Source of the DNA: Thermotogota bacterium
GTDB lineage: Bacteria > Thermotogota > Thermotogae > MWEM01
DNA length: 64,000 nucleotides
Reading direction: 5' to 3'
Assembly (NCBI GenBank): GCA_035447925.1
Contig: DAOTHY010000001.1
Coordinates: 108,300 to 172,299 of the forward strand
Numbering within the stretch: position 1 is the stretch's first letter; each line of letters begins with the position of its first letter. The notes below the pieces were generated by a model. The model was given only the letters and a program-made list of their open reading frames with translations, did not search any database and was not told the DNA's origin. A program made the translations under genes and the position numbers. Of the stretch, positions 45,633-55,443 are shown piece by piece.

Positions 45633-47987
45633 TTATGGTATTTGTTTCCAAAAATGATCAAGAATGGATCTGATTTCTTTTTCATTTCTGATACTAATGG
45701 CATGAGACCAATCGGCAGGAAAAATGAACGGGTAAGGTTTTCTGATAAAGCGTTCGTCTATGAGAATAACTGCTCCCTTATCATCATGTGATCGAATCAC
45801 TCTGCCAACTGCTTGCATAACTTTGTTGGCTCCAGGAATAATATAGGCGTATTCCCAACCTTTCCCCAGTTTTTCTTGATAATAGTCTTTTATAATATCT
45901 CTGTCAAATCCAATTTGAGGCAAACCAACTCCAACAATGATGGCTCCGCTTAATCGACTGCCGATTAGATCGATTCCTTCACCAAAAATCCCGCCCATCA
46001 AGACAAAACCGACAAAAGTCTGTTCGGGGGAGTGTTTGAAAGCATCTAAAAATGCTTCTCTTTCAGATTCGCTCATGAGAGGTGTTTGCATCCTTGTTAA
46101 GATATGTGGGCATTTTTCTGTGAACAAATGGTAGATCATTTCCATGTATTTGTAGGATGGGAAAAAAACCATATAGTTACCCGTGTGTTTGGTCATCAGT
46201 TCGATATTCTTTACGATAGCAGCTGCAGAGTATATTCTCGCATGGTATTTAGTGGAAATCTTAGAATTAACCAGTAAACAAAGTCTTTGTTGATTAAACG
46301 GCGACCTAAGAATCAGAGAATAATCGTCATCTTTAGAACCAAACAACTGTTTGTAATAATCCAGAGGTGATAATGTTGCAGAAAAAAAAACGCATGAGCT
46401 TCCTTTTTCTATCATTTCTCTAATATGAAGAGAAGGATCGATACAGTAAAGGGTTAAAGTTTCTTCGGTATTATCGTAAATGGTGATATAATGATCGTCA
46501 TATCTTTCCATTGCATTATTGAAGGTGTTTAATTCGAAAAAGTAATCAGTGAGTTTTTCCTTTAACGCATCAAACCCAGGCGTCATCAGGTAAGAAGCAA
46601 TTTCTTTTAAAACTGTTTCAAGGGGTTCTTTGATATCTTCAGGCAGTTCTTTTTTTTTCCATTTTGTCTCCAAATTCTCATTGAGGAAATAATAAGCGAC
46701 CTCTGTTTCCAATTTTCTGGCACTGATGGCTATTTTTGACTCAGTATGCCTGACATCGTTTCGCAATTTGCGTAAACGATCAAGGGAGAGAGGTGCTGAA
46801 TACATTTCTCTTGATCTATCTGGAAGGTTGTGGGCTTCATCGATCAAAAAGATATAAGGTCCTTTTTCTTCAAAATATCGTCTCAGATAAGCCCGTGGAT
46901 CGAATAAATAATTATAATCGCAAATAATGCAATCCGAAAACTCTGACAAATCCAATGAAAGCTCATAAGGGCAAATTGAAAATCGCTTTGCATGCTCTTG
47001 TATCATTCTGCGGCTGTAATGTCCTTCTTCTTTTATTATTTCAAGTAAAGCATCGTTAATCCTGTTATAATGGCCATTGGCATAAGGACAACTGTAAGGA
47101 TTACATTTGAATTCCTGATTGATACACATTTTTTCTTTGGCTGTGATCACGATTGATTTTAATTTTAGTCCTTTTGTTCTTAGAAGATTTAGGGTGTTTT
47201 CTACAGTCTGTCGAGTGATGGTTTTAGAAGTAAGATAAAAAAGAGGACCGGCCAAGTTTTTCTCCATGGCTTTAATTGATGGAAATAGCGTTGCCAGAGT
47301 TTTACCGGTTCCGGTAGGTGCTTGTGCAAATAATTTCTTGTTGTCCTTTATTGTATGGTATACCATAATGGAGAACCTTCTCTGACCTTCCCGGAAATGA
47401 GGGAAAGGGAATTGCAGATTCTTGATGCTGGTATTTCTCAGCTCAATCCAGTCATCTTTTAACTTTAACCATTTGGAATATAGAACACACAATTCATTGA
47501 AAAAATTCTCAAGGACTTCTTTGGAGTAAAAAAAATCAAGATGCTTCATGTCTTCCGTATCGATGTTAAAGTAAGTGATTCGCAAATGAACAGATTCCAA
47601 TTTTTCTCTGCTACAAATCATATGACCATAACACATACACTGTCTAAGGTGGTTTTGATCCAAAATAGCATCAATATCTTCCAAAGGTACTTTTGTTGTT
47701 TTTATTTCATCAACTGTTATTTCTTTCTGATGAGTGTGTATTCCATCGGCTCTTCCGAATATTGATAACAACATTTTTTGGTTTTGATAAATGCCGTTCA
47801 AATAGACTTCACTTTCATATTTTCCTGGAAAACTGTCTTCATACTGTTTTTGAATTCGCTTATGTGCTTTAGTCCCAATAGTGGCTCTTTCTCTCATATC
47901 CGGGGCATTGAAGCGATTATCTAGATTTCCCGATCTGAATAAAAATTCAATAAGTTCCCTAACCGATACCGAATGCTCTTTCAACAA
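45633..47987 (-). CDS. DinG/XPD(Rad3)-family Fe-S DNA helicase fused to N-terminal RecB/Cas4-like PD-(D/E)XK nuclease domain
   Basis: The N-terminal ~190 aa carries SVSVRELIEF (an SxSxL..Y/F-like nuclease N-motif), GRADGI (GxhD), VDEIKTTK (D/E-x-K) and a CxC..C cluster (CMCYGHMIC). The helicase has Walker A (AQAPTGTGKTLA), an XPD-type 4-Cys Fe-S insertion (C..C..C...C) and DEAHNL. The TTG start at 47987 has an AAGGAG RBS and overlaps the upstream gene stop. Confidence 0.7.
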   Translation of the reverse strand: MLKEHSVSVRELIEFLFRSGNLDNRFNAPDMRERATIGTKAHKRIQKQYEDSFPGKYESEVYLNGIYQNQKMLLSIFGRADGIHTHQKEITVDEIKTTKVPLEDIDAILDQNHLRQCMCYGHMICSREKLESVHLRITYFNIDTEDMKHLDFFYSKEVLENFFNELCVLYSKWLKLKDDWIELRNTSIKNLQFPFPHFREGQRRFSIMVYHTIKDNKKLFAQAPTGTGKTLATLFPSIKAMEKNLAGPLFYLTSKTITRQTVENTLNLLRTKGLKLKSIVITAKEKMCINQEFKCNPYSCPYANGHYNRINDALLEIIKEEGHYSRRMIQEHAKRFSICPYELSLDLSEFSDCIICDYNYLFDPRAYLRRYFEEKGPYIFLIDEAHNLPDRSREMYSAPLSLDRLRKLRNDVRHTESKIAISARKLETEVAYYFLNENLETKWKKKELPEDIKEPLETVLKEIASYLMTPGFDALKEKLTDYFFELNTFNNAMERYDDHYITIYDNTEETLTLYCIDPSLHIREMIEKGSSCVFFSATLSPLDYYKQLFGSKDDDYSLILRSPFNQQRLCLLVNSKISTKYHARIYSAAAIVKNIELMTKHTGNYMVFFPSYKYMEMIYHLFTEKCPHILTRMQTPLMSESEREAFLDAFKHSPEQTFVGFVLMGGIFGEGIDLIGSRLSGAIIVGVGLPQIGFDRDIIKDYYQEKLGKGWEYAYIIPGANKVMQAVGRVIRSHDDKGAVILIDERFIRKPYPFIFPADWSHAISIRNEKEIRSILDHFWKQIP

Positions 47988-50900
47988 TAGTTTTCTCCTT
48001 GGACGTTCTCAGAAAAAGCCTCAGAAAAATCCGTTGAATGCAAGTTGGTATTTGATGTAATCAATCGAACAGGGGAATCGTCCCCATAAATAATGAAGCC
48101 ACCCCATATCCATGAAGGGGCTTCTCCCCACTGGCTTCTCAACTGATGAATCAATTTCTGTTTTGAGGCCTTTAAAGCTTCGGATTTTTTCATCCCGGTC
48201 AGTAGGAAATTGTAAAAAAAAGACATTAGTTTTACCGTAAAAACATCCGGTACATTCCATAGGCTGACCATAACTGATGAAACACCTGAAGAAATCAAAG
48301 CTGAACAAAGCCCCATGATACCCTCTCCTGGATTTATTTGACCAAGACCGGTTTTACAAGCAGAAAGTACAACAATTTCTGTATTGAGTAAATTTACTGA
48401 TAAAATATCCGATGCCGTTAATAAGCCATCTTCATAAATTTCCGGTATAGTCTCACCTCTAAGAATATTGTTAATGCCACTTAAAGCTATACCGCAACGC
48501 GCATAGGGATGTACATCTACCCGATTTTCGAGATAAAAACCATGGGTGGCCAAATGGAGAATAGACGGGGACGTTATTTTTTTCATTTCACCATCATTTA
48601 CAGAATCTTTGCTGAATACGAACACATCATCCTTTTTTAAGCCTTGTCCAAAGAGAAGGTTTGATATTTCCTGCGCTTCAGAAGCGGTTCCAGGTAATTC
48701 TTCAAATTCTTCCAATTCTTTTATCAACAGCTGGTTCTGGTAAGAGATTTCTTTTTTAAGGTTTGGATCATTATTGATTTCAAATGAGGGGTTGGCAAAA
48801 ATATATACTTTGTTATTAAATTCTTTGACATTTTCTTTTTGATTAATCAAATCCCTTCCTGAACAAAGGTATTGAACAGCGTAGTTTTCTATGAGATAAT
48901 GACCGTTTTCGCAAATAAGTGTTTCAAAAGGAAGGTTGTTAAACTCACCATCAGGTGAAACAAATAGTTTGTTAATTCGGGAAAGATTAAGTTGCGTTTG
49001 ATTTTGAAAAAGAATCTGCCATATTTTTTGATGGAATAACTCAGGTGCTGAGCTGTTTTGAAGCACAGCCGAAGGGGATTTCTCCCCACGCATATGGCCG
49101 GTTTCACGAAATTGGCCCTTCTTGATGATCTGTTCAATTTCGCTGGCATTGTCAATAAAATAATAATGTGTTTTGTCATGATGGATATAGAACAGGATAT
49201 AGCCAGTCGTTTGATTTTGTCTCGTGGATCTTTTTTTGTCTTGACTGTAGACAACCGATTCATAAAAATCAAAAAAGTTAAATTTAAAAATATCCACAAA
49301 CAAAGCGTCTTGAGGAATCTTGCTTTGTAGCAGTTTGAGCGTTGCTCTTTTTGTTTTTGAATGTAATAGAAACGTTGATTCAGGTGACATGCGGAAAGCA
49401 CTGGCTATTCTGCTTTCAATTGTATCAGCCTTTGAGTTGAGTTCTTTTATCTTTTTTCTGTTTTCCTCAGCAGTTTCACTAAAATAACCTTTGGTTGTCC
49501 GCAGTACAATTTCTTCTTTTATCCTGATCAACGACTCAAAGAGGTCTTTTAAAAATGGGTTTGTGCCTTTTAAAATGGAGTGATAACGTTCGACTCCTGT
49601 TTCAAAAACGACCGCTTTTCTTCTTAAAATAATGCCAAAGATCTCTTGCATCATGTCGTTTATTTGAGAGTCATTCACTTTTTGTTCTTTTTGGAGTAGA
49701 TAAAAAAGACTAAGAAGTTTGTTCAATTCACCATCTATTCGTTGTAAAAAATTCCATGCATAGTCTCTGGAAAAGGATGTTGATACTTCAAGCAGTATAT
49801 CATTTTGGATATCAGTCGCTTCCTTGAGGATGTTATAAGCTGCTTCTGGTTGAGAGAAGACAATGAAACTGTGTGCGAGCATACCTAAGATCTTGGTATA
49901 CTGAATATGTCTTTTTCCGGTTAATTGTTCTTGTATTTTCAACGCCATTTCCAAGTTGTCAAAAGTGGATAAGTCATCTTGGTTGATGAGATAGATTTTT
50001 GAAAGATTGGAAAGAATTTTAATTTTAATATCAGGAATCATTTCACAGGACTGCAACGGTTTTAATATTTTCATGGCTTTAGCTGTATTCCCCAAGTTGA
50101 TTAGCAAAACAGCATAATTAATTTTGATTTTCAACAACGTAATCGGCATGTTTTTTGTATTACAGTTCAGCAATTCTTCAAAGCCTTGTTGAGCAACTTC
50201 CAATTTACCCAGATGAAGCTGTGCTGAGAGAAGGTTGTTGCAGGTGGTGATGGTTTTTGGATGATCCTTTCCGAAAATTTTTTGTGAATAATCAAATGAT
50301 TTTTGTAAATGATTTTCCGCTGCTTCGTAATTCCCGGTTTCCAAATACAACACACCCATATTATTTTCTATGGTGTCTGTTAATTCATCTGTTCCGTTTA
50401 ATTGTGAGATTTCTAGTGCCATCAGATATTTTTCGATAGATTTAGCGTATTTTCCCCAATACTGATACAAAAGTCCCGTATTCCAAAGGGTTTTGATATA
50501 GTCTTCAATGTGTCCGATAATTTCGCTTTCGAAAATCTTTAAGACTTCAGTAAAAATTTTTTCAGCTTCCGTAAATCTACCTAATTCAGTATATAAAAGC
50601 GCTAAATTGGAAGACGTTTCAATTGTATCAGGATGAGAACCGCCAAAAAGAGCTCTTCGACTATCATAAGCTTGTTTATAATAATCCATTGCAAAATCAT
50701 AATTTCCTTTATAATAATGCAATTCTCCAAGGAGGTTTTTGATAAAGGCGATAAAGTCATTATTTGGTTGAGTTCTCTCCATTTCCTGCTTTAAAATTTT
50801 TAGTACTAATGCTTCAATATGATCGAAAAATCCAAAAAGCAAGCAAGTTTGATTAATCATCAGGGTTAATTCTTTTTTTGACGAATAATTATATTGATTG

Positions 50901-51016
50901 TCTACAAGCATTTGTTCAACGATTTGTTCTGAATACTCAAGAAATTGATCAGTTTGCTGCAGTTTTGCGAAGCCTTTTATTTTTTTTTTAATGTTTTTGA
51001 GAGATGAATTTTCCAT
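47981..51016 (-). CDS. TPR-repeat CHAT-domain protein (caspase-like cysteine protease, clan CD fold)
   Basis: 1011 aa. The N-terminal two-thirds contain many TPR-like repeats (e.g. AMDYYKQAYDSR..., YEAAENHLQKSFDYSQK...). The C-terminal CHAT domain has the catalytic His (ILHLATHGFY) and Cys (VLSACKTG) at the expected spacing. Confidence 0.75.
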   Translation of the reverse strand: MENSSLKNIKKKIKGFAKLQQTDQFLEYSEQIVEQMLVDNQYNYSSKKELTLMINQTCLLFGFFDHIEALVLKILKQEMERTQPNNDFIAFIKNLLGELHYYKGNYDFAMDYYKQAYDSRRALFGGSHPDTIETSSNLALLYTELGRFTEAEKIFTEVLKIFESEIIGHIEDYIKTLWNTGLLYQYWGKYAKSIEKYLMALEISQLNGTDELTDTIENNMGVLYLETGNYEAAENHLQKSFDYSQKIFGKDHPKTITTCNNLLSAQLHLGKLEVAQQGFEELLNCNTKNMPITLLKIKINYAVLLINLGNTAKAMKILKPLQSCEMIPDIKIKILSNLSKIYLINQDDLSTFDNLEMALKIQEQLTGKRHIQYTKILGMLAHSFIVFSQPEAAYNILKEATDIQNDILLEVSTSFSRDYAWNFLQRIDGELNKLLSLFYLLQKEQKVNDSQINDMMQEIFGIILRRKAVVFETGVERYHSILKGTNPFLKDLFESLIRIKEEIVLRTTKGYFSETAEENRKKIKELNSKADTIESRIASAFRMSPESTFLLHSKTKRATLKLLQSKIPQDALFVDIFKFNFFDFYESVVYSQDKKRSTRQNQTTGYILFYIHHDKTHYYFIDNASEIEQIIKKGQFRETGHMRGEKSPSAVLQNSSAPELFHQKIWQILFQNQTQLNLSRINKLFVSPDGEFNNLPFETLICENGHYLIENYAVQYLCSGRDLINQKENVKEFNNKVYIFANPSFEINNDPNLKKEISYQNQLLIKELEEFEELPGTASEAQEISNLLFGQGLKKDDVFVFSKDSVNDGEMKKITSPSILHLATHGFYLENRVDVHPYARCGIALSGINNILRGETIPEIYEDGLLTASDILSVNLLNTEIVVLSACKTGLGQINPGEGIMGLCSALISSGVSSVMVSLWNVPDVFTVKLMSFFYNFLLTGMKKSEALKASKQKLIHQLRSQWGEAPSWIWGGFIIYGDDSPVRLITSNTNLHSTDFSEAFSENVQGENYC

Positions 51017-51036: not shown

Positions 51037-51828
51037 TTAGGAGAGTTTGCTCTGCTTTTGTATAGAAAAGGGTTCAAAAGCTAGTAGGTATTTTCCTGGG
51101 TTTAACCCTTCAATTGAAACCTCAAACTGATCTTTGTTTTTTGATTCGTAAGCCGTTCGAATGATGGGTTTTCCGCTTTGAGTGGGGATTAATATGATCA
51201 CGGGTGAAGATTGCCAACCTGGTGCTTTATTGCAAATAATGTGTATGGCCTTTGTTTGAGAATGAGCCTGTATTTCTAATATCATCTTTTCTTGTAAATA
51301 GCCATTAAGTATATTTTCGCGTTTTTTCTCGAATGGTGTGTTTGTGTTTCCCCTCATAGCGAATGATTCCACTGGGTACTTGAATACAAGAGGGTTTTCC
51401 GGATTCATGGTGCTTTTTTTAAAGATTTTTGTAATATTTGATATGCCGTTATATGAAGTATCCATGACTACATCCACAGTATTGCTTATGAAAACACCCC
51501 ATTCTTTTAGCCAGTTTAAAATTCTGATTCTGATAGATTGATCTTGATATGGAAGTTCTTTCAGAATATTGATCATCATTTTTTGGCTCCGGGTAGGTTT
51601 TTCTTCTGTCCATTCCTGAAAAGAAATTGAGAAATCCAAGGCCTTTGTGAGCCTTGACAAACACAGGTCACATTCATTTAAATGCTCTTCCATTCGGATG
51701 ATTTCTTCCATCGGTAAAACTGGAATTTCCTTGCTATGATGAATAGGAGGGTAAAAAACAGACCTTTTTTGGATATATTCAGAATCAATGTATTTTTCGA
51801 TTTGTTCAATCGTCAAATGCTCTTTCAT
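51037..51828 (-). CDS. Putative anti-sigma factor, zf-HC2 type, soluble
   Basis: It carries the HLNECDLCLSRL (H-x3-C-x2-C) motif typical of zf-HC2 anti-sigma N-domains. It lies immediately downstream of the sigma factor gene and has no clear TM helix. Confidence 0.5.
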   Translation of the reverse strand: MKEHLTIEQIEKYIDSEYIQKRSVFYPPIHHSKEIPVLPMEEIIRMEEHLNECDLCLSRLTKALDFSISFQEWTEEKPTRSQKMMINILKELPYQDQSIRIRILNWLKEWGVFISNTVDVVMDTSYNGISNITKIFKKSTMNPENPLVFKYPVESFAMRGNTNTPFEKKRENILNGYLQEKMILEIQAHSQTKAIHIICNKAPGWQSSPVIILIPTQSGKPIIRTAYESKNKDQFEVSIEGLNPGKYLLAFEPFSIQKQSKLS

Positions 51829-51895
51829 AATAACACCTCACTATTCTTGTCGATCACATGATTATACTTTGCTTCTTATGATCATGTCGCATGAC

Positions 51896-53002
51896 TTAAC
51901 TTTCCAGTACTTTTTTTCTCAGCCTTTTAAGAACTCGATGATTCCAGTCTCTTATATTTTTTAAAGGATCCTTTCCAAAAAAAACGGATAATGACAAGTC
52001 CGCTAATGGATCATCAAGATAATCTTGTAGATAGCTTCTTGATTGATGATCTTTGGTTGGGATTACATCCTTAAGGATTAACATCAACTGATTTTCAAGG
52101 GGTTTGAAGATCTCCTCTAACTCTTCAATATCATGAAAAGAACTCTTTGAAAAAGATGTTTTCATCTCTTGAAAGAGCCTTGATAAAGGCAAATCGGATA
52201 ATGCTGTGATGTCGGTTCTCTCATCCGTTATCTTTGTTAATAAGACGACCAACACTTGCCAAGGATAACCTCCTACCGCAACCATTTGTTCCAGGAAATG
52301 TCTTTCTTGGGTTGTTTTTTCTTGTATTTGATCTGGTGAAGGGTCTTTTGAGATCGCCCAAAAAATTGGAGTAGTATCCTGCTCGTTTTGTTCGTTAAAA
52401 TCTGAAACAAGTGTTTCAGGAATTGTGGTTTCATCTTTAACCAAATGATCTGCGATGGAAATCAGATAACTAAATAGTGTGCCTTTGTATGGATTAAAAT
52501 TCGTAGCGTATCGTTCAAAGCGTTGAAAAGTTTCCAACATCAGATCAGTACATCTATTATTGAAATACTCGGTTCCCTTTATCCCTAAAAGATTTTTACT
52601 AATGTATGATTTGATTGGTAAGCTGTATTCTCGATACAATTCATTCATTCCAGATGCTTTTCGTTTTGTTATCAGTTTTAAAAGTAATAAATCTTGGCAG
52701 ATTCTGAACATCCACATCCGATAGAGTTCCATCTGATTATCAATATGTTCTTCATACACAAAGCTATTAATTCTGGTCCATGATATTTCTCGTGTTTGTT
52801 TGATGAATTGTTCTATCGTTTTTTCCATTTTCTTTTTATCGGATGATTGACCTTCAAACTCTTTTCGAAAACGAAGTTTTATTTTTGATTTAAGCCTTGT
52901 TATCAAAAAAGGTGACTGGTCAGTGCTAAATGCTATATACTCATGATAAAGTTGTTTAGTCTCATTGATCAGTTGTTTGTTTACCATGTTGTCCTCCGTC
53001 AA
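51896..53002 (-). CDS. Sigma-70 family RNA polymerase sigma factor (ECF-like, extended)
   Basis: Region 2 matches DLMLETFQRFERYATNFNPYKGTLFSYLISIADHLVKD (D-L-x-Q-E-x-F ... F-x-x-W/Y-L-x-x-I-A-x-N). The region 4.2-like C-terminus is NIRDWNHRVLKRLRKKV. A ~140-aa N-terminal extension and a long 2-4 linker are atypical. Confidence 0.55.
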   Translation of the reverse strand: MTEDNMVNKQLINETKQLYHEYIAFSTDQSPFLITRLKSKIKLRFRKEFEGQSSDKKKMEKTIEQFIKQTREISWTRINSFVYEEHIDNQMELYRMWMFRICQDLLLLKLITKRKASGMNELYREYSLPIKSYISKNLLGIKGTEYFNNRCTDLMLETFQRFERYATNFNPYKGTLFSYLISIADHLVKDETTIPETLVSDFNEQNEQDTTPIFWAISKDPSPDQIQEKTTQERHFLEQMVAVGGYPWQVLVVLLTKITDERTDITALSDLPLSRLFQEMKTSFSKSSFHDIEELEEIFKPLENQLMLILKDVIPTKDHQSRSYLQDYLDDPLADLSLSVFFGKDPLKNIRDWNHRVLKRLRKKVLES

Positions 53003-53025: not shown

Positions 53026-53772
53026 CTATTTTAGCATATCATCTGATTCATTGATTTCTGGTTGAGAAAACAGATTGTAAATATCGTTTTCATTTAATTC
53101 TTTATATTCTCCTGGTTTCAAAGATGGATCTAATCGAAGAGATCCAATGGCTATTCGATCTAATTCAATGACTTCAGAATGGACCGTTTCAAACATCTTT
53201 TTAACTTGATGGAATCTTCCCTCCGTAATTCCAAGACAAATGGTAAATTGATCTGAGTTTACATCACAAATCTTAAAATAAGTGACAGGTTTAGTCTGAA
53301 AGTCTTTAGTGATTTGAATGCCTTCGAAAAAGAAGTGTGTATCCTCGGGATTAAAATGTATGACAACGGCTTTGTATAATTTTTGGACTTTTTTTGAAGG
53401 CGAAATAATTGAATGTACCAAATCTCCCTGAGTGCTTAATATAAGTAACCCCGTTGTATCAACATCTAATCTTCCTGCAATGGCATAAGTCGGGTGAGGT
53501 TTTTTAATCAGTTCAATAACCGATGGATAACCTGACTCACTTTCGTTAGATGAAACAAATCCCTTTGGCTTATTCATCATAATCGTACTGATTGGTTTTA
53601 TCGTAATAGGTTGACCTTTAAGAGATATGTTTGTTTCAAAATCAACTATTGTGGAAGGTTCTAAACAGATTCTACCGTTCAAGGAAATCAATCCGCTTTT
53701 AATCCATTTTTTCACTTCACTTCTTGACCCATAGCCTGTATTTGAAAGATAACGATCAAGTCTCATTGCCAA
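53026..53772 (-). CDS. rsuA: 16S rRNA pseudouridine synthase (RsuA family)
   Basis: S4 domain (MRLDRYLSNTGYGSRSEVKKWI) and catalytic Asp motif (GRLDVDTTGLLIL). Confidence 0.8.
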   Translation of the reverse strand: MAMRLDRYLSNTGYGSRSEVKKWIKSGLISLNGRICLEPSTIVDFETNISLKGQPITIKPISTIMMNKPKGFVSSNESESGYPSVIELIKKPHPTYAIAGRLDVDTTGLLILSTQGDLVHSIISPSKKVQKLYKAVVIHFNPEDTHFFFEGIQITKDFQTKPVTYFKICDVNSDQFTICLGITEGRFHQVKKMFETVHSEVIELDRIAIGSLRLDPSLKPGEYKELNENDIYNLFSQPEINESDDMLK

Positions 53773-54662
53773 TTTTTACTGCCTCTTGCAAAATAGATTT
53801 CAGAACAAATTAATCTCAATCTTTCCAACACAAAAGCTTCATCGGAATGAATCAGATAACCTGTGTTGAAATGAGTCAAATTGATCAATCTCGGATCTTT
53901 GAAGAATACAACTGCCTGATCCAGTATGGGAGCTGCTAACGGCCTGTAAAAAACTTGAAAAGACTCCATCGAAAATCTCTTTTTGAGTGGGGTGATTCCT
54001 GCTAAAATGATTTCCTGCCTTAGGTCTTTTTCATTAATAACCTTTTGAGACCATTGCCAATCCATGTGAGTCAGTAATGATGGATAATAAAGTACTTCTC
54101 CCGAATAATCAATCACGGCAACGGCCATATCCAGAAATCTTTGTTCCTCTGCTTGGAAATCTTCCAATAAAATTGCAGGAAAGATCTTTTTGTGTTTTAG
54201 GTTAAGAATGAGTTCGTCGTTTAAACCGTATTTAGTGCTTAACACAGGGAAAATACCCCCTGCCATCAAGCCGTTTGTAATCCATTCGATGGACTGTGAT
54301 GCTTTATATGGATCTACGGAAAAAAAAGGGGCAATCACTTCATCAAAACTCCCTTGTATGACTTGTATATTATCAGACATTACTTGACTGTAACCGATCA
54401 CACAGGCTTTGCTGTCAGAAGCTTTTGCCTTTTGAGCCATCAACAGACCAAAACTGAACAGAATATTGGGATCAGTAATGGTTCCAAGAACAAAAGGACT
54501 AATGTCGTTTAAATAATAGGGTAAAGCAGGATAATAAATACCCCAATCAGTATTTGTATGTATGATTTGCTCTTGCAGTCCCTCAACAGTGCTTTGAGCA
54601 CCAAAATTAATGGAGCAAATCAGAATAAAGATGACTGAGAATGTGATAAACCCCTTCTTCAT
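53763..54662 (-). CDS. Exported hypothetical protein
   Basis: I place the start at the internal ATG 54662 (MKKGFITFSVIFILICSINF, a signal peptide). It still overlaps the upstream Cof gene by 56 nt, so the start is uncertain. Confidence 0.4.
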   Translation of the reverse strand: MKKGFITFSVIFILICSINFGAQSTVEGLQEQIIHTNTDWGIYYPALPYYLNDISPFVLGTITDPNILFSFGLLMAQKAKASDSKACVIGYSQVMSDNIQVIQGSFDEVIAPFFSVDPYKASQSIEWITNGLMAGGIFPVLSTKYGLNDELILNLKHKKIFPAILLEDFQAEEQRFLDMAVAVIDYSGEVLYYPSLLTHMDWQWSQKVINEKDLRQEIILAGITPLKKRFSMESFQVFYRPLAAPILDQAVVFFKDPRLINLTHFNTGYLIHSDEAFVLERLRLICSEIYFARGSKNWQ

Positions 54663-55443
54663 TGTTGGTTTTATCAAGGCAAAGTGTCGCAGCCTTTTTA
54701 AGCTTTGGTGTAGCGTTGGCCATAGCAATAGAATAGCCCACCACTTCAAATGCGTATATGTCGTTGTCACCGTCTCCTATCATAATGGTTTGCTTTGGAT
54801 TCAGATTCAGGTACTGAAGTAATTCCAATGTTGCGATTCCTTTGTTTGTTGTGTTTGGGATGTAATCTAAATAAATTGAAAAAGACTTAAAAATATTTAC
54901 CTTCTTTGAGAATAAATTCAGACTATCTTTTTCTATTTCGTGTAGAAATTCAGGTTGACCAATAGCCAATATTTTGTCAACCTTTGTGCCGCTTTTTGTG
55001 CAGTTTGATCGGATCAATTCTGTGAGACTTTCTACAACAAGATAATTGATACCGGCGTGAGCGGCATAATGTTTGATTTGATCATTATCTTCTTCCACAA
55101 TCAACTGGTTATTGATATAGGCTTGTCTGTGACACCTCTTTGAACGAAGAAATTCAATGATTTTTGCTGCTGTTTCGTTGTCTATGAAATGGTGGAAAAT
55201 TGGTTTTAGTTCTCCGGGTATTGTGATTAAACTTCCATTGTAACTTATGATTGGGAATTGATCTGTACCGAAATATTTATTGATGATATGATGGGCAGAA
55301 TCCAGCATTCTACCTGTGCAGAAGATGATGGATATCCCTTTTCGATGAATGGTTTTTAATAAATCAATTGTTTTGATAGATATTTTTAATTCATCATCTA
55401 AGATTGTTCCGTCTATGTCTAAAACAACCGTTTTGTAATTCAA
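54607..55443 (-). CDS. Cof-type HAD-IIB phosphatase
   Basis: N-terminal VLDIDGTIL and C-terminal GDGDNDI motifs. Confidence 0.75.
   Translation of the reverse strand: MNYKTVVLDIDGTILDDELKISIKTIDLLKTIHRKGISIIFCTGRMLDSAHHIINKYFGTDQFPIISYNGSLITIPGELKPIFHHFIDNETAAKIIEFLRSKRCHRQAYINNQLIVEEDNDQIKHYAAHAGINYLVVESLTELIRSNCTKSGTKVDKILAIGQPEFLHEIEKDSLNLFSKKVNIFKSFSIYLDYIPNTTNKGIATLELLQYLNLNPKQTIMIGDGDNDIYAFEVVGYSIAMANATPKLKKAATLCLDKTNNEEGVYHILSHLYSDLLH

Follow-up and report, generated by a model that had tools for sequence, protein, structure and literature searches.

A conserved gene triad in Thermotogota as a candidate cytoplasmic sigma, anti-sigma and TPR-CHAT protease module

How could a sigma factor be released from an anti-sigma partner that has no membrane anchor? 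The question is raised by three adjacent genes in a 64,000-nt stretch of the genome of an uncultured Thermotogota bacterium (contig DAOTHY010000001.1, positions 108,300 to 172,299 of the forward strand; the whole stretch is called the window here), which encode a sigma-like protein, a soluble partner of the zinc-binding anti-sigma (ZAS) type and a caspase-like protease with tetratricopeptide repeats (TPR) and a CHAT domain. A first-pass annotation, made from the letters alone, had taken the first two genes for an atypical sigma-70/anti-sigma pair, had reasoned that an anti-sigma without a transmembrane helix is unlikely to be released by classical regulated intramembrane proteolysis, and had concluded that cleavage by the adjacent CHAT protease was the release mechanism that remained. 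We find that the three genes form a deeply conserved unit, and we are evenly divided on whether they make up a three-component, wholly cytoplasmic signalling module with a protease-released sigma factor. The triad belongs to four closely packed open reading frames (ORFs) on the minus strand at 45.6-53.0 kb of the window, where all previously listed ORFs are present:

51896..52987, minus strand: sigma-like gene, 363 aa; the listed ORF extends to 53002
51037..51828, minus strand: partner gene, 263 aa, a soluble ZAS-type anti-sigma candidate, 67 nt downstream of the sigma-like gene
51661..51684, minus strand: HLNECDLC codons (H49-x3-C53-x2-C56), core of the zinc-binding anti-sigma motif, invariant in 27/27 family members
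47981..51016, minus strand: TPR-CHAT gene, 1011 aa, a predicted cytoplasmic caspase-like protease, 20 nt beyond the partner gene

The sigma-like gene starts at ATG 52987 in all 17 homologs, with GGAGG 5-10 nt upstream, and the TTG at 53002 falls within its ribosome-binding site; the protein therefore has 363 aa and not the 368 aa first given.

Evidence for a functional unit comes from the conservation of the triad. The loci recovered from species-representative genomes all belong to uncultured Thermotogota metagenome-assembled genomes (MAGs), and the order sigma, partner, CHAT is kept in 13/13 Thermotogota loci, which bears out the adjacency of a CHAT protease that the first-pass annotation had pointed to. 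Across these loci the partner evolves fastest (31-73% identity), followed by the sigma-like protein (40-82%) and the neighbouring helicase (60-88%), while the flanks of the triad vary: the upstream flank differs in L001 and the helicase is unmatched in L013. The decisive case for linkage is a full-length relative with only ~27% sigma identity (P0033), in which the order sigma, 245-aa protein, TPR-CHAT is retained (L016/L017), the 245-aa protein bears the same motif and matches the partner profile, and the flanks in L016 (gatAB, serine dehydratase, M20 peptidase) are unrelated. A partner directly downstream of the sigma-like gene is also found in L014, L016, L018 and L019, and a metagenome scan with short relatives adds 45 further loci, about 30 of which have a partner-family gene after the sigma gene. 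The linkage of TPR-CHAT to the sigma/partner pair is thus supported far beyond chance, and the module may be a core regulator passed on vertically within a Thermotogota lineage. As to taxonomy, a protein identical to the window's sigma-like protein (P0001) carries a 'Bacteroidales bacterium' label in one NCBI MAG record, whereas Thermotogota or Thermotogaceae is the label of all nine species-representative genomes with the family (L005-L013); the Bacteroidales label probably reflects an error in binning or classification.

Among the short-relative loci the third gene is variable. It encodes TPR-CHAT or another CHAT protein in L030, L037, L041, L049/50 and L064-66, a TPR-Ser/Thr kinase in L024, L028, L032, L033, L036 and L053, and a Clp-type protein in L027 (ClpB-like AAA+) and L045 (FHA-Clp_N); CHAT-NTPase fusions are also among the third genes of the family. 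A constant sigma/anti-sigma pair combined with interchangeable TPR-linked enzymes is what would be expected if the third protein were the input and inactivated the anti-sigma, whether by cleaving or by phosphorylating it, and suggests that one such pair may be wired to phosphorylation or unfolding instead of proteolysis.

By its fold and its distant relatives, the sigma-like protein has a genuine sigma-2 domain of the extracytoplasmic function (ECF) type. Its own sequence reaches E=0.083 (13.1 bits, cut-off 24) against Pfam Sigma70_r2 and 2.4e-4 against NCBIfam TIGR02952, far under threshold, its close family (17 clusters, 42-100% identity, all ~360 aa) includes no member with a precomputed Pfam domain, and the close-family profile reaches E=0.17 in the Protein Data Bank (PDB). 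Searched exhaustively with HMMER, the family profile leads to 133 representative clusters (clustering at 50% identity), and here Sigma70_r2 is detected by Pfam in 73/111 scanned relatives (best 2e-18). The profile of these relatives matches the solved ECF sigmas AlgU (7.6e-21), RpoE (8e-19) and SigW (2e-17), in alignments that all end after sigma-2, and the signature positions of region 2.1-2.4 are kept in the window protein (D..E.F ... F.YL..IA....D). Of the two sigma-70 regions first claimed, region 2 thus stands; for region 4 there is no match in the sigma-like protein in the Pfam and NCBIfam scans.

Outside sigma-2 the 363-aa protein does not match the minimal ECF architecture (sigma-2 and sigma-4 with a short linker, about 170-220 aa). 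Its predicted layout begins with an N-terminal extension of helices (~1-100), which is followed by sigma-2 (~101-190), an acidic linker without order (190-213), a conserved domain that is helical and carries a GYPWQ motif (218-300) and a C-terminal part resembling a helix-turn-helix (HTH; ~301-363). The extension alone is missing from shorter relatives (~270-300 aa), which align from query residue ~100, so that the extension measures ~100 aa and not ~140 aa as first described. The long stretch noted earlier between regions 2 and 4 is present, at ~110 aa between sigma-2 and the HTH-like part, but it is no mere spacer, being made up of the acidic linker and the conserved helical domain. Foldseek matches to ECF sigmas of 148-186 residues cover 208-270 columns (E 0.025-0.5), spans that are consistent with sigma-2 and a C-terminal HTH being matched across a ~110-residue insertion. 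The C-terminal sequence (...FFGKDPLKNIRDWNHRVLKRLRKKVL) is patterned like an HTH, and W348 hardly varies in the superfamily; the final ~60 residues resemble a degenerate sigma-4, and judged by sequence the C-terminal 150 aa form a conserved module of no recognised family. The C-terminal ~135-aa module of the sigma-like protein, with GYPHQ ... NISDW motifs, also occurs in ~160-190-aa proteins without sigma-2 (L020 2401-2961, L021 2002-2562; P0083 and about 30 similar representatives), which are either truncated gene calls or genuine stand-alone proteins; those of L020 and L021 lie just upstream of a gene for a 903-aa Ser/Thr kinase.

The partner is best read as a soluble ZAS-type anti-sigma with putative zinc ligands and an additional Ig-like domain. 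HLNECDLC occupies residues 49-56, as the first-pass annotation had recognised, and H49, C53 and C56 are invariant in a 27-sequence alignment of the partner family; together with H4 they are also invariant in 11 close homologs and in a 17-sequence alignment reaching down to ~20% identity. The earlier statement that the protein has no transmembrane helix likewise holds (best 19-residue Kyte-Doolittle mean 0.85). Pfam zf-HC2 is reached by 13/27 family members (best 9.6e-6), and the top PDB matches of the family profile are RslA (0.0036), ChrR (0.024), the ZAS domain of DdvA (8rlz_A, 0.025) and RsrA (0.057). In the window protein a variable ~20-residue insert lies between the first His and HxxxCxxC, giving a first-ligand spacing of 45 residues; in shorter relatives the spacing is 25, with ligands H6/H31/C35/C38 in L019, the same ligand positions as in ChrR. 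The predicted domains are a helical anti-sigma-like bundle (~1-115), a flexible loop (~124-161) and an Ig-like beta-sandwich (~117-251), and a near-invariant arginine, R159 (...YPVESFAMRGN...), is situated in the low-confidence loop between the helical and beta domains.

The third protein is identified directly, with Pfam matches to CHAT (E=2.3e-57) and TPR_12 (3e-40) that place a TPR array at ~76-410 and the CHAT domain at 663-979. The predicted catalytic dyad of H825 (HLATHG) and C887 (SACKTG) is kept in 11/11 orthologs examined, including the distant L016. The protein has no signal peptide and no membrane-like segment outside the domain core, and what a phmmer search against the PDB returns is confined to kinesin-light-chain TPRs, Csx29, DdvA and separase being absent. 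PADLOC has no matching model for the sigma-like or TPR-CHAT protein and a single weak match for the partner (Cas3, E=0.0084).

Two promoter-like elements are conserved beside the sigma-like gene, the first of them overlapping the gene upstream:

53028..53036, minus strand: extended -10 element TGCTAAAAT, of the housekeeping (sigma-A) type, ~45 nt before the sigma-like ATG
53026-53772, minus strand: RsuA/RluB-type pseudouridine synthase gene, upstream of the sigma-like gene
51861..51893, minus strand: bipartite promoter-like element CATGCGACA-N17-GTATAAT, within the 67 nt that separate the sigma-like gene from the partner gene

TG(T/C)TAAAAT or a close variant is found at a constant distance (~45 nt) from the sigma start in 12/12 aligned Thermotogota loci. 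In the window this extended -10 overlaps the last codons and stop of the pseudouridine synthase (…GAT GAT ATG CTA AAA TAG), so coding sequence and promoter are co-constrained. Since the element is of the housekeeping type, transcription of the sigma-like gene appears to be constitutive and not under its own control. A promoter motif of the kind that the first-pass annotation had suggested looking for upstream of 53002 was not found, and an autoregulated ECF-type promoter before the sigma gene was rejected because the site there is the conserved extended -10; the family's own element is located after the sigma gene, ahead of the anti-sigma gene.

This second element, CATGCGACA-N16/17-GTAT(A/T)A, is present between the sigma-like and partner genes in every Thermotogota locus. 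A two-block matrix trained on seven loci was applied to both strands of the held-out loci L001 and L012 (17 kb and 21 kb), where its top two matches are the site in the sigma-partner gap and a site before a divergent lipoprotein gene, both at 20.8 bits, with the next best at 13.3 and 9.8. One occurrence of the strict pattern is found in the window, where about one is expected by chance, so the significance of the element rests on its positional conservation and not on counts in the window. A generic promoter scan also picks the 51861..51893 element, as GCGACA-18-TATAAT. We regard it as a candidate promoter of the sigma-like factor that may drive the anti-sigma, protease and lipoprotein genes.

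The ~440-aa predicted lipoprotein (signal peptide and lipobox Cys, no Pfam domain) has homologous genes next to the triad in L001 (6576-7877), L004 (1539-2861) and L016 (5512-6864), three divergent lineages, in each case on the minus strand and transcribed divergently from the sigma-like gene. In L001 and L012 its gene is preceded by a CATGCGACA-N17-GTATAAT-type element, and it is probably a member of the regulon; tblastn finds no ortholog in the 64-kb window.

Taken together, these features suggest the following mechanism. A divergent ECF-like sigma would be made constitutively from the housekeeping extended -10 promoter and kept inactive by a soluble zinc-binding anti-sigma, whose N-terminal helical domain (H4, H49, C53, C56) would clamp the sigma and whose C-terminal Ig-like beta-sandwich would serve as a handle. 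The TPR-CHAT protease would be the input element: a signal sensed through the TPR array would activate the His-Cys dyad, which would cut the anti-sigma, most likely in the flexible loop that joins the helical domain to the beta domain and contains the near-invariant R159. Housekeeping proteases would then clear the anti-sigma fragments, and the freed sigma would take RNA polymerase to CATGCGACA-N16/17-GTAT promoters, one of which, before the anti-sigma and protease genes, would give negative feedback, while another precedes the divergent lipoprotein gene in sister lineages. Cleavage of the partner by CHAT, and hence proteolytic release, is plausible. The choice of R159 is speculative: metacaspases and separase cut after Arg. 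Craspases, on the other hand, cut after Met or Leu (PMC11506125).

Several observations weigh against this mechanism. The window's sigma-like and partner proteins both miss curated thresholds, the partner itself having no match in Pfam or NCBIfam, so their assignments depend on transitive homology and on AlphaFold2 models of moderate confidence (pLDDT 79 and 69). None of the 111 relatives matches Sigma70_r4 or r4_2 in Pfam, the profile of the C-terminal ~150-residue module finds nothing informative in Pfam or the PDB and no sigma-3 or sigma-4, and the Foldseek E values are weak for a sigma-4 equivalent. An hhalign comparison of the family profiles with E. coli RpoE puts sigma-2 in register and is insignificant. 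The promoter matrix loses discrimination in the most distant loci, and the intergenic element could be an unusual sigma-A promoter, as its -35-like GCGACA agrees with TTGACA at 4/6 positions and its -10 is TATAAT. Finally, a soluble ZAS can be releasable without proteolysis, and the CHAT protein could be a mere output of the sigma, because the promoter-like element precedes the partner and CHAT genes.

These last two points combine into an alternative that we consider unlikely, though the likeliest of three such rivals, namely that the partner is an RsrA/ChrR-type redox- or zinc-sensing ZAS and CHAT a regulon member or effector. ChrR and RsrA are released by singlet oxygen or thiol oxidation and are not known to have a dedicated adjacent protease; the partner-family profile matches both, and the family conserves a CxxC pair and two His ligands. 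Soluble anti-sigmas are, moreover, an established class, found in 10 ECF groups (PMC7826278), so the earlier argument that the absence of a transmembrane helix leaves only CHAT proteolysis fails. As the promoter-like element immediately precedes the genes for the partner and CHAT, expression of CHAT could indeed depend on the sigma, but the TPR-Ser/Thr kinases, Clp-like ATPases and CHAT-NTPase fusions found at the CHAT position fit interchangeable regulators better than a common effector, and where TPR-CHAT systems are known next to sigma/anti-sigma genes, their action lies upstream of the sigma (PMC10028731, PMC11506125).

Two further explanations concern the sigma-like protein itself. It might not be a functional sigma at all, acting instead as a sigma-2-containing adaptor or decoy, comparable to PhyR with its sigma-like domain, or as a regulator with another DNA-binding domain, together with the partner and CHAT in another pathway. 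The missing sigma-4 match leaves room for this, but we hold it to be improbable: the signature positions of region 2.1-2.4 are retained, the Foldseek alignments to full-length ECF sigmas reach both ends, a conserved -35/-10-like bipartite element, its spacing fixed, lies beside the genes, and pairing with a ZAS protein is a hallmark of real ECF sigmas. Least probable of all, in our judgement, is that CHAT activates the sigma by cutting off its ~100-aa N-terminal extension while the partner has a separate role. Bacillus pro-sigma-E and pro-sigma-K are precedents for such processing, the extension is conserved in the 17 full-length relatives with no recognisable function, and extended sigma and CHAT are combined in all Thermotogota triads and in L016. 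However, in L037 CHAT follows the partner beside an extension-less sigma relative (match region about 265 aa), which argues against the extension as an obligatory CHAT substrate; it is also predicted to form well-folded helices packed on the protein rather than a disordered pro-peptide, and there is no conserved exposed loop between it and sigma-2.

Release of the sigma by cleavage of the anti-sigma, the mechanism that we prefer, has a precedent in Craspase, in which the TPR-CHAT protein Csx29 cleaves Csx30 and thereby releases CASP-sigma (PMC10028731). The window likewise places a cytoplasmic TPR-CHAT protein with a His-Cys dyad beside an ECF-like sigma and a soluble sigma inhibitor candidate, but the latter is a 263-aa ZAS protein whereas Csx30 has ~565 aa, the CHAT protein has no sequence match to Csx29 in the PDB, and Cas7-11 is absent. 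A CRISPR link was rejected, as there is no CRISPR-like array in the 64-kb window and the flanking genes of the triad are housekeeping genes; the activating signal cannot be a target RNA guided by CRISPR RNA. In DdvS/DdvA of Myxococcus xanthus (PMC11506125, PMC6061681) a CHCC/HHCC zinc anti-sigma domain is also tied to TPR-CHAT and an ECF sigma, DdvA being a fusion of the ZAS domain to TPR-CHAT (PMC11506125) whose ZAS domain is the weak match of the partner-family profile given above. DdvA, however, is a single transmembrane polypeptide with a cytoplasmic ZAS and a periplasmic TPR-CHAT part, whereas the window encodes the two as separate ORFs, neither of which has a predicted transmembrane helix or signal peptide, with no membrane step. 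DdvS is a canonical ECF sigma, and the window sigma has extra domains and no recognisable sigma-4.

ChrR has an N-terminal anti-sigma domain and a C-terminal beta-rich domain. The partner resembles ChrR-sigmaE and RsrA-sigmaR in being a soluble anti-sigma candidate with an H/C-x(~25)-H-x3-C-x2-C zinc site, and differs from ChrR in that its C-terminal domain is predicted as an Ig-like sandwich, not a cupin, and in the ~20-aa insert before HxxxCxxC. In CalpL-CalpT-CalpS and SAVED-CHAT/PCaspase with PCc-sigma (bioRxiv 10.1101/2023.06.23.546230), too, a signal-activated protease is coupled to an anti-sigma-like substrate or sigma cascade; these proteases are activated by cyclic oligoadenylate through SAVED and belong to type III CRISPR or cyclic-oligonucleotide-based antiphage signalling system (CBASS) loci, whereas the window lacks both a SAVED domain and any CRISPR or CBASS context. 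CHAT-domain proteins are found in the conserved gene context of ECF54, which has no anti-sigma (PMC8999054), and other ECF groups are encoded beside Ser/Thr kinases (PMC8999054, PMC7826278), as are several members of the superfamily studied here; those ECF groups are described as lacking an anti-sigma and have canonical sigma-2 and sigma-4, in contrast to the family of the window, which is always paired with a ZAS protein and has no detectable sigma-4. A full-text literature search found no description of a split, soluble, CRISPR-independent sigma/ZAS/TPR-CHAT triad. The principle is already known; the novelty lies in a soluble form that stands alone, in the remodelling of the sigma and in the way the family combines modularly with protease or kinase.

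A broader proposal, which we put forward tentatively and think rather less probable than the module itself, is that the window represents an undescribed, widespread superfamily of cytoplasmic three-component sigma switches, made up of an ECF-derived sigma in which a ~150-aa module has replaced the canonical sigma-4 or arisen by its remodelling and would read an unusual CATGCGAC -35, a soluble ZAS with an Ig handle and an interchangeable TPR-linked enzyme. The input enzyme would be a caspase-like CHAT protease here and a Ser/Thr kinase in sister lineages, and the CHAT version would stand alone, independent of CRISPR, as a counterpart and possibly an evolutionary source of the logic of Craspase/Csx30/CASP-sigma and DdvA. 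Release of a sigma by a caspase-like TPR-CHAT protein has so far been known only from CRISPR/defence loci (Craspase) and has been proposed for the membrane protein DdvA. A soluble stand-alone triad among housekeeping genes would, if confirmed, make it a general bacterial signalling device and not a CRISPR accessory. If the sigma is active, a family of 133 clusters with sigma-2 and no recognisable sigma-4 would extend the concept of the -35-reading domain, as with sigma-I, and the alternation of CHAT and TPR-kinase at one position would be a natural experiment on wiring the same pair to proteolysis or phosphorylation. With small, soluble parts and a candidate promoter at hand, the hypothesis is directly testable.

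The fourth ORF of the cluster is a neighbour of the triad:

45633..47987, minus strand: helicase gene, 784 aa, DinG-family with an N-terminal PD-(D/E)XK nuclease-like region, overlapping the CHAT stop by 7 nt

The helicase belongs to the DinG/XPD family (Pfam Helicase_C_2 1.7e-37, DEAD_2 1.2e-14), and its N-terminal PD-(D/E)XK region is Cas4/AddB-like (PDDEXK_1 0.0011). PADLOC returns DinG/Cas3-type models only, with DinG (type IV-A CRISPR-associated) at 8e-120, a match that probably reflects a general DinG relative and not a defence component. The gene adjoins the triad in most Thermotogota loci; it was rejected as a fourth component because it is not found in L013 or in L016, where an M20 peptidase gene stands in its place, and it is probably a lineage-specific neighbour outside the module.

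On the other side of the triad, upstream of the pseudouridine synthase, lies a 335-aa ORF (53763-54770, minus strand) with no Pfam domain on record, which occupies the same position in related loci at 54-82% identity. It is called at ~265 aa in L003, and its true start is probably further downstream, given that the listed start overlaps the preceding HAD-hydrolase gene.

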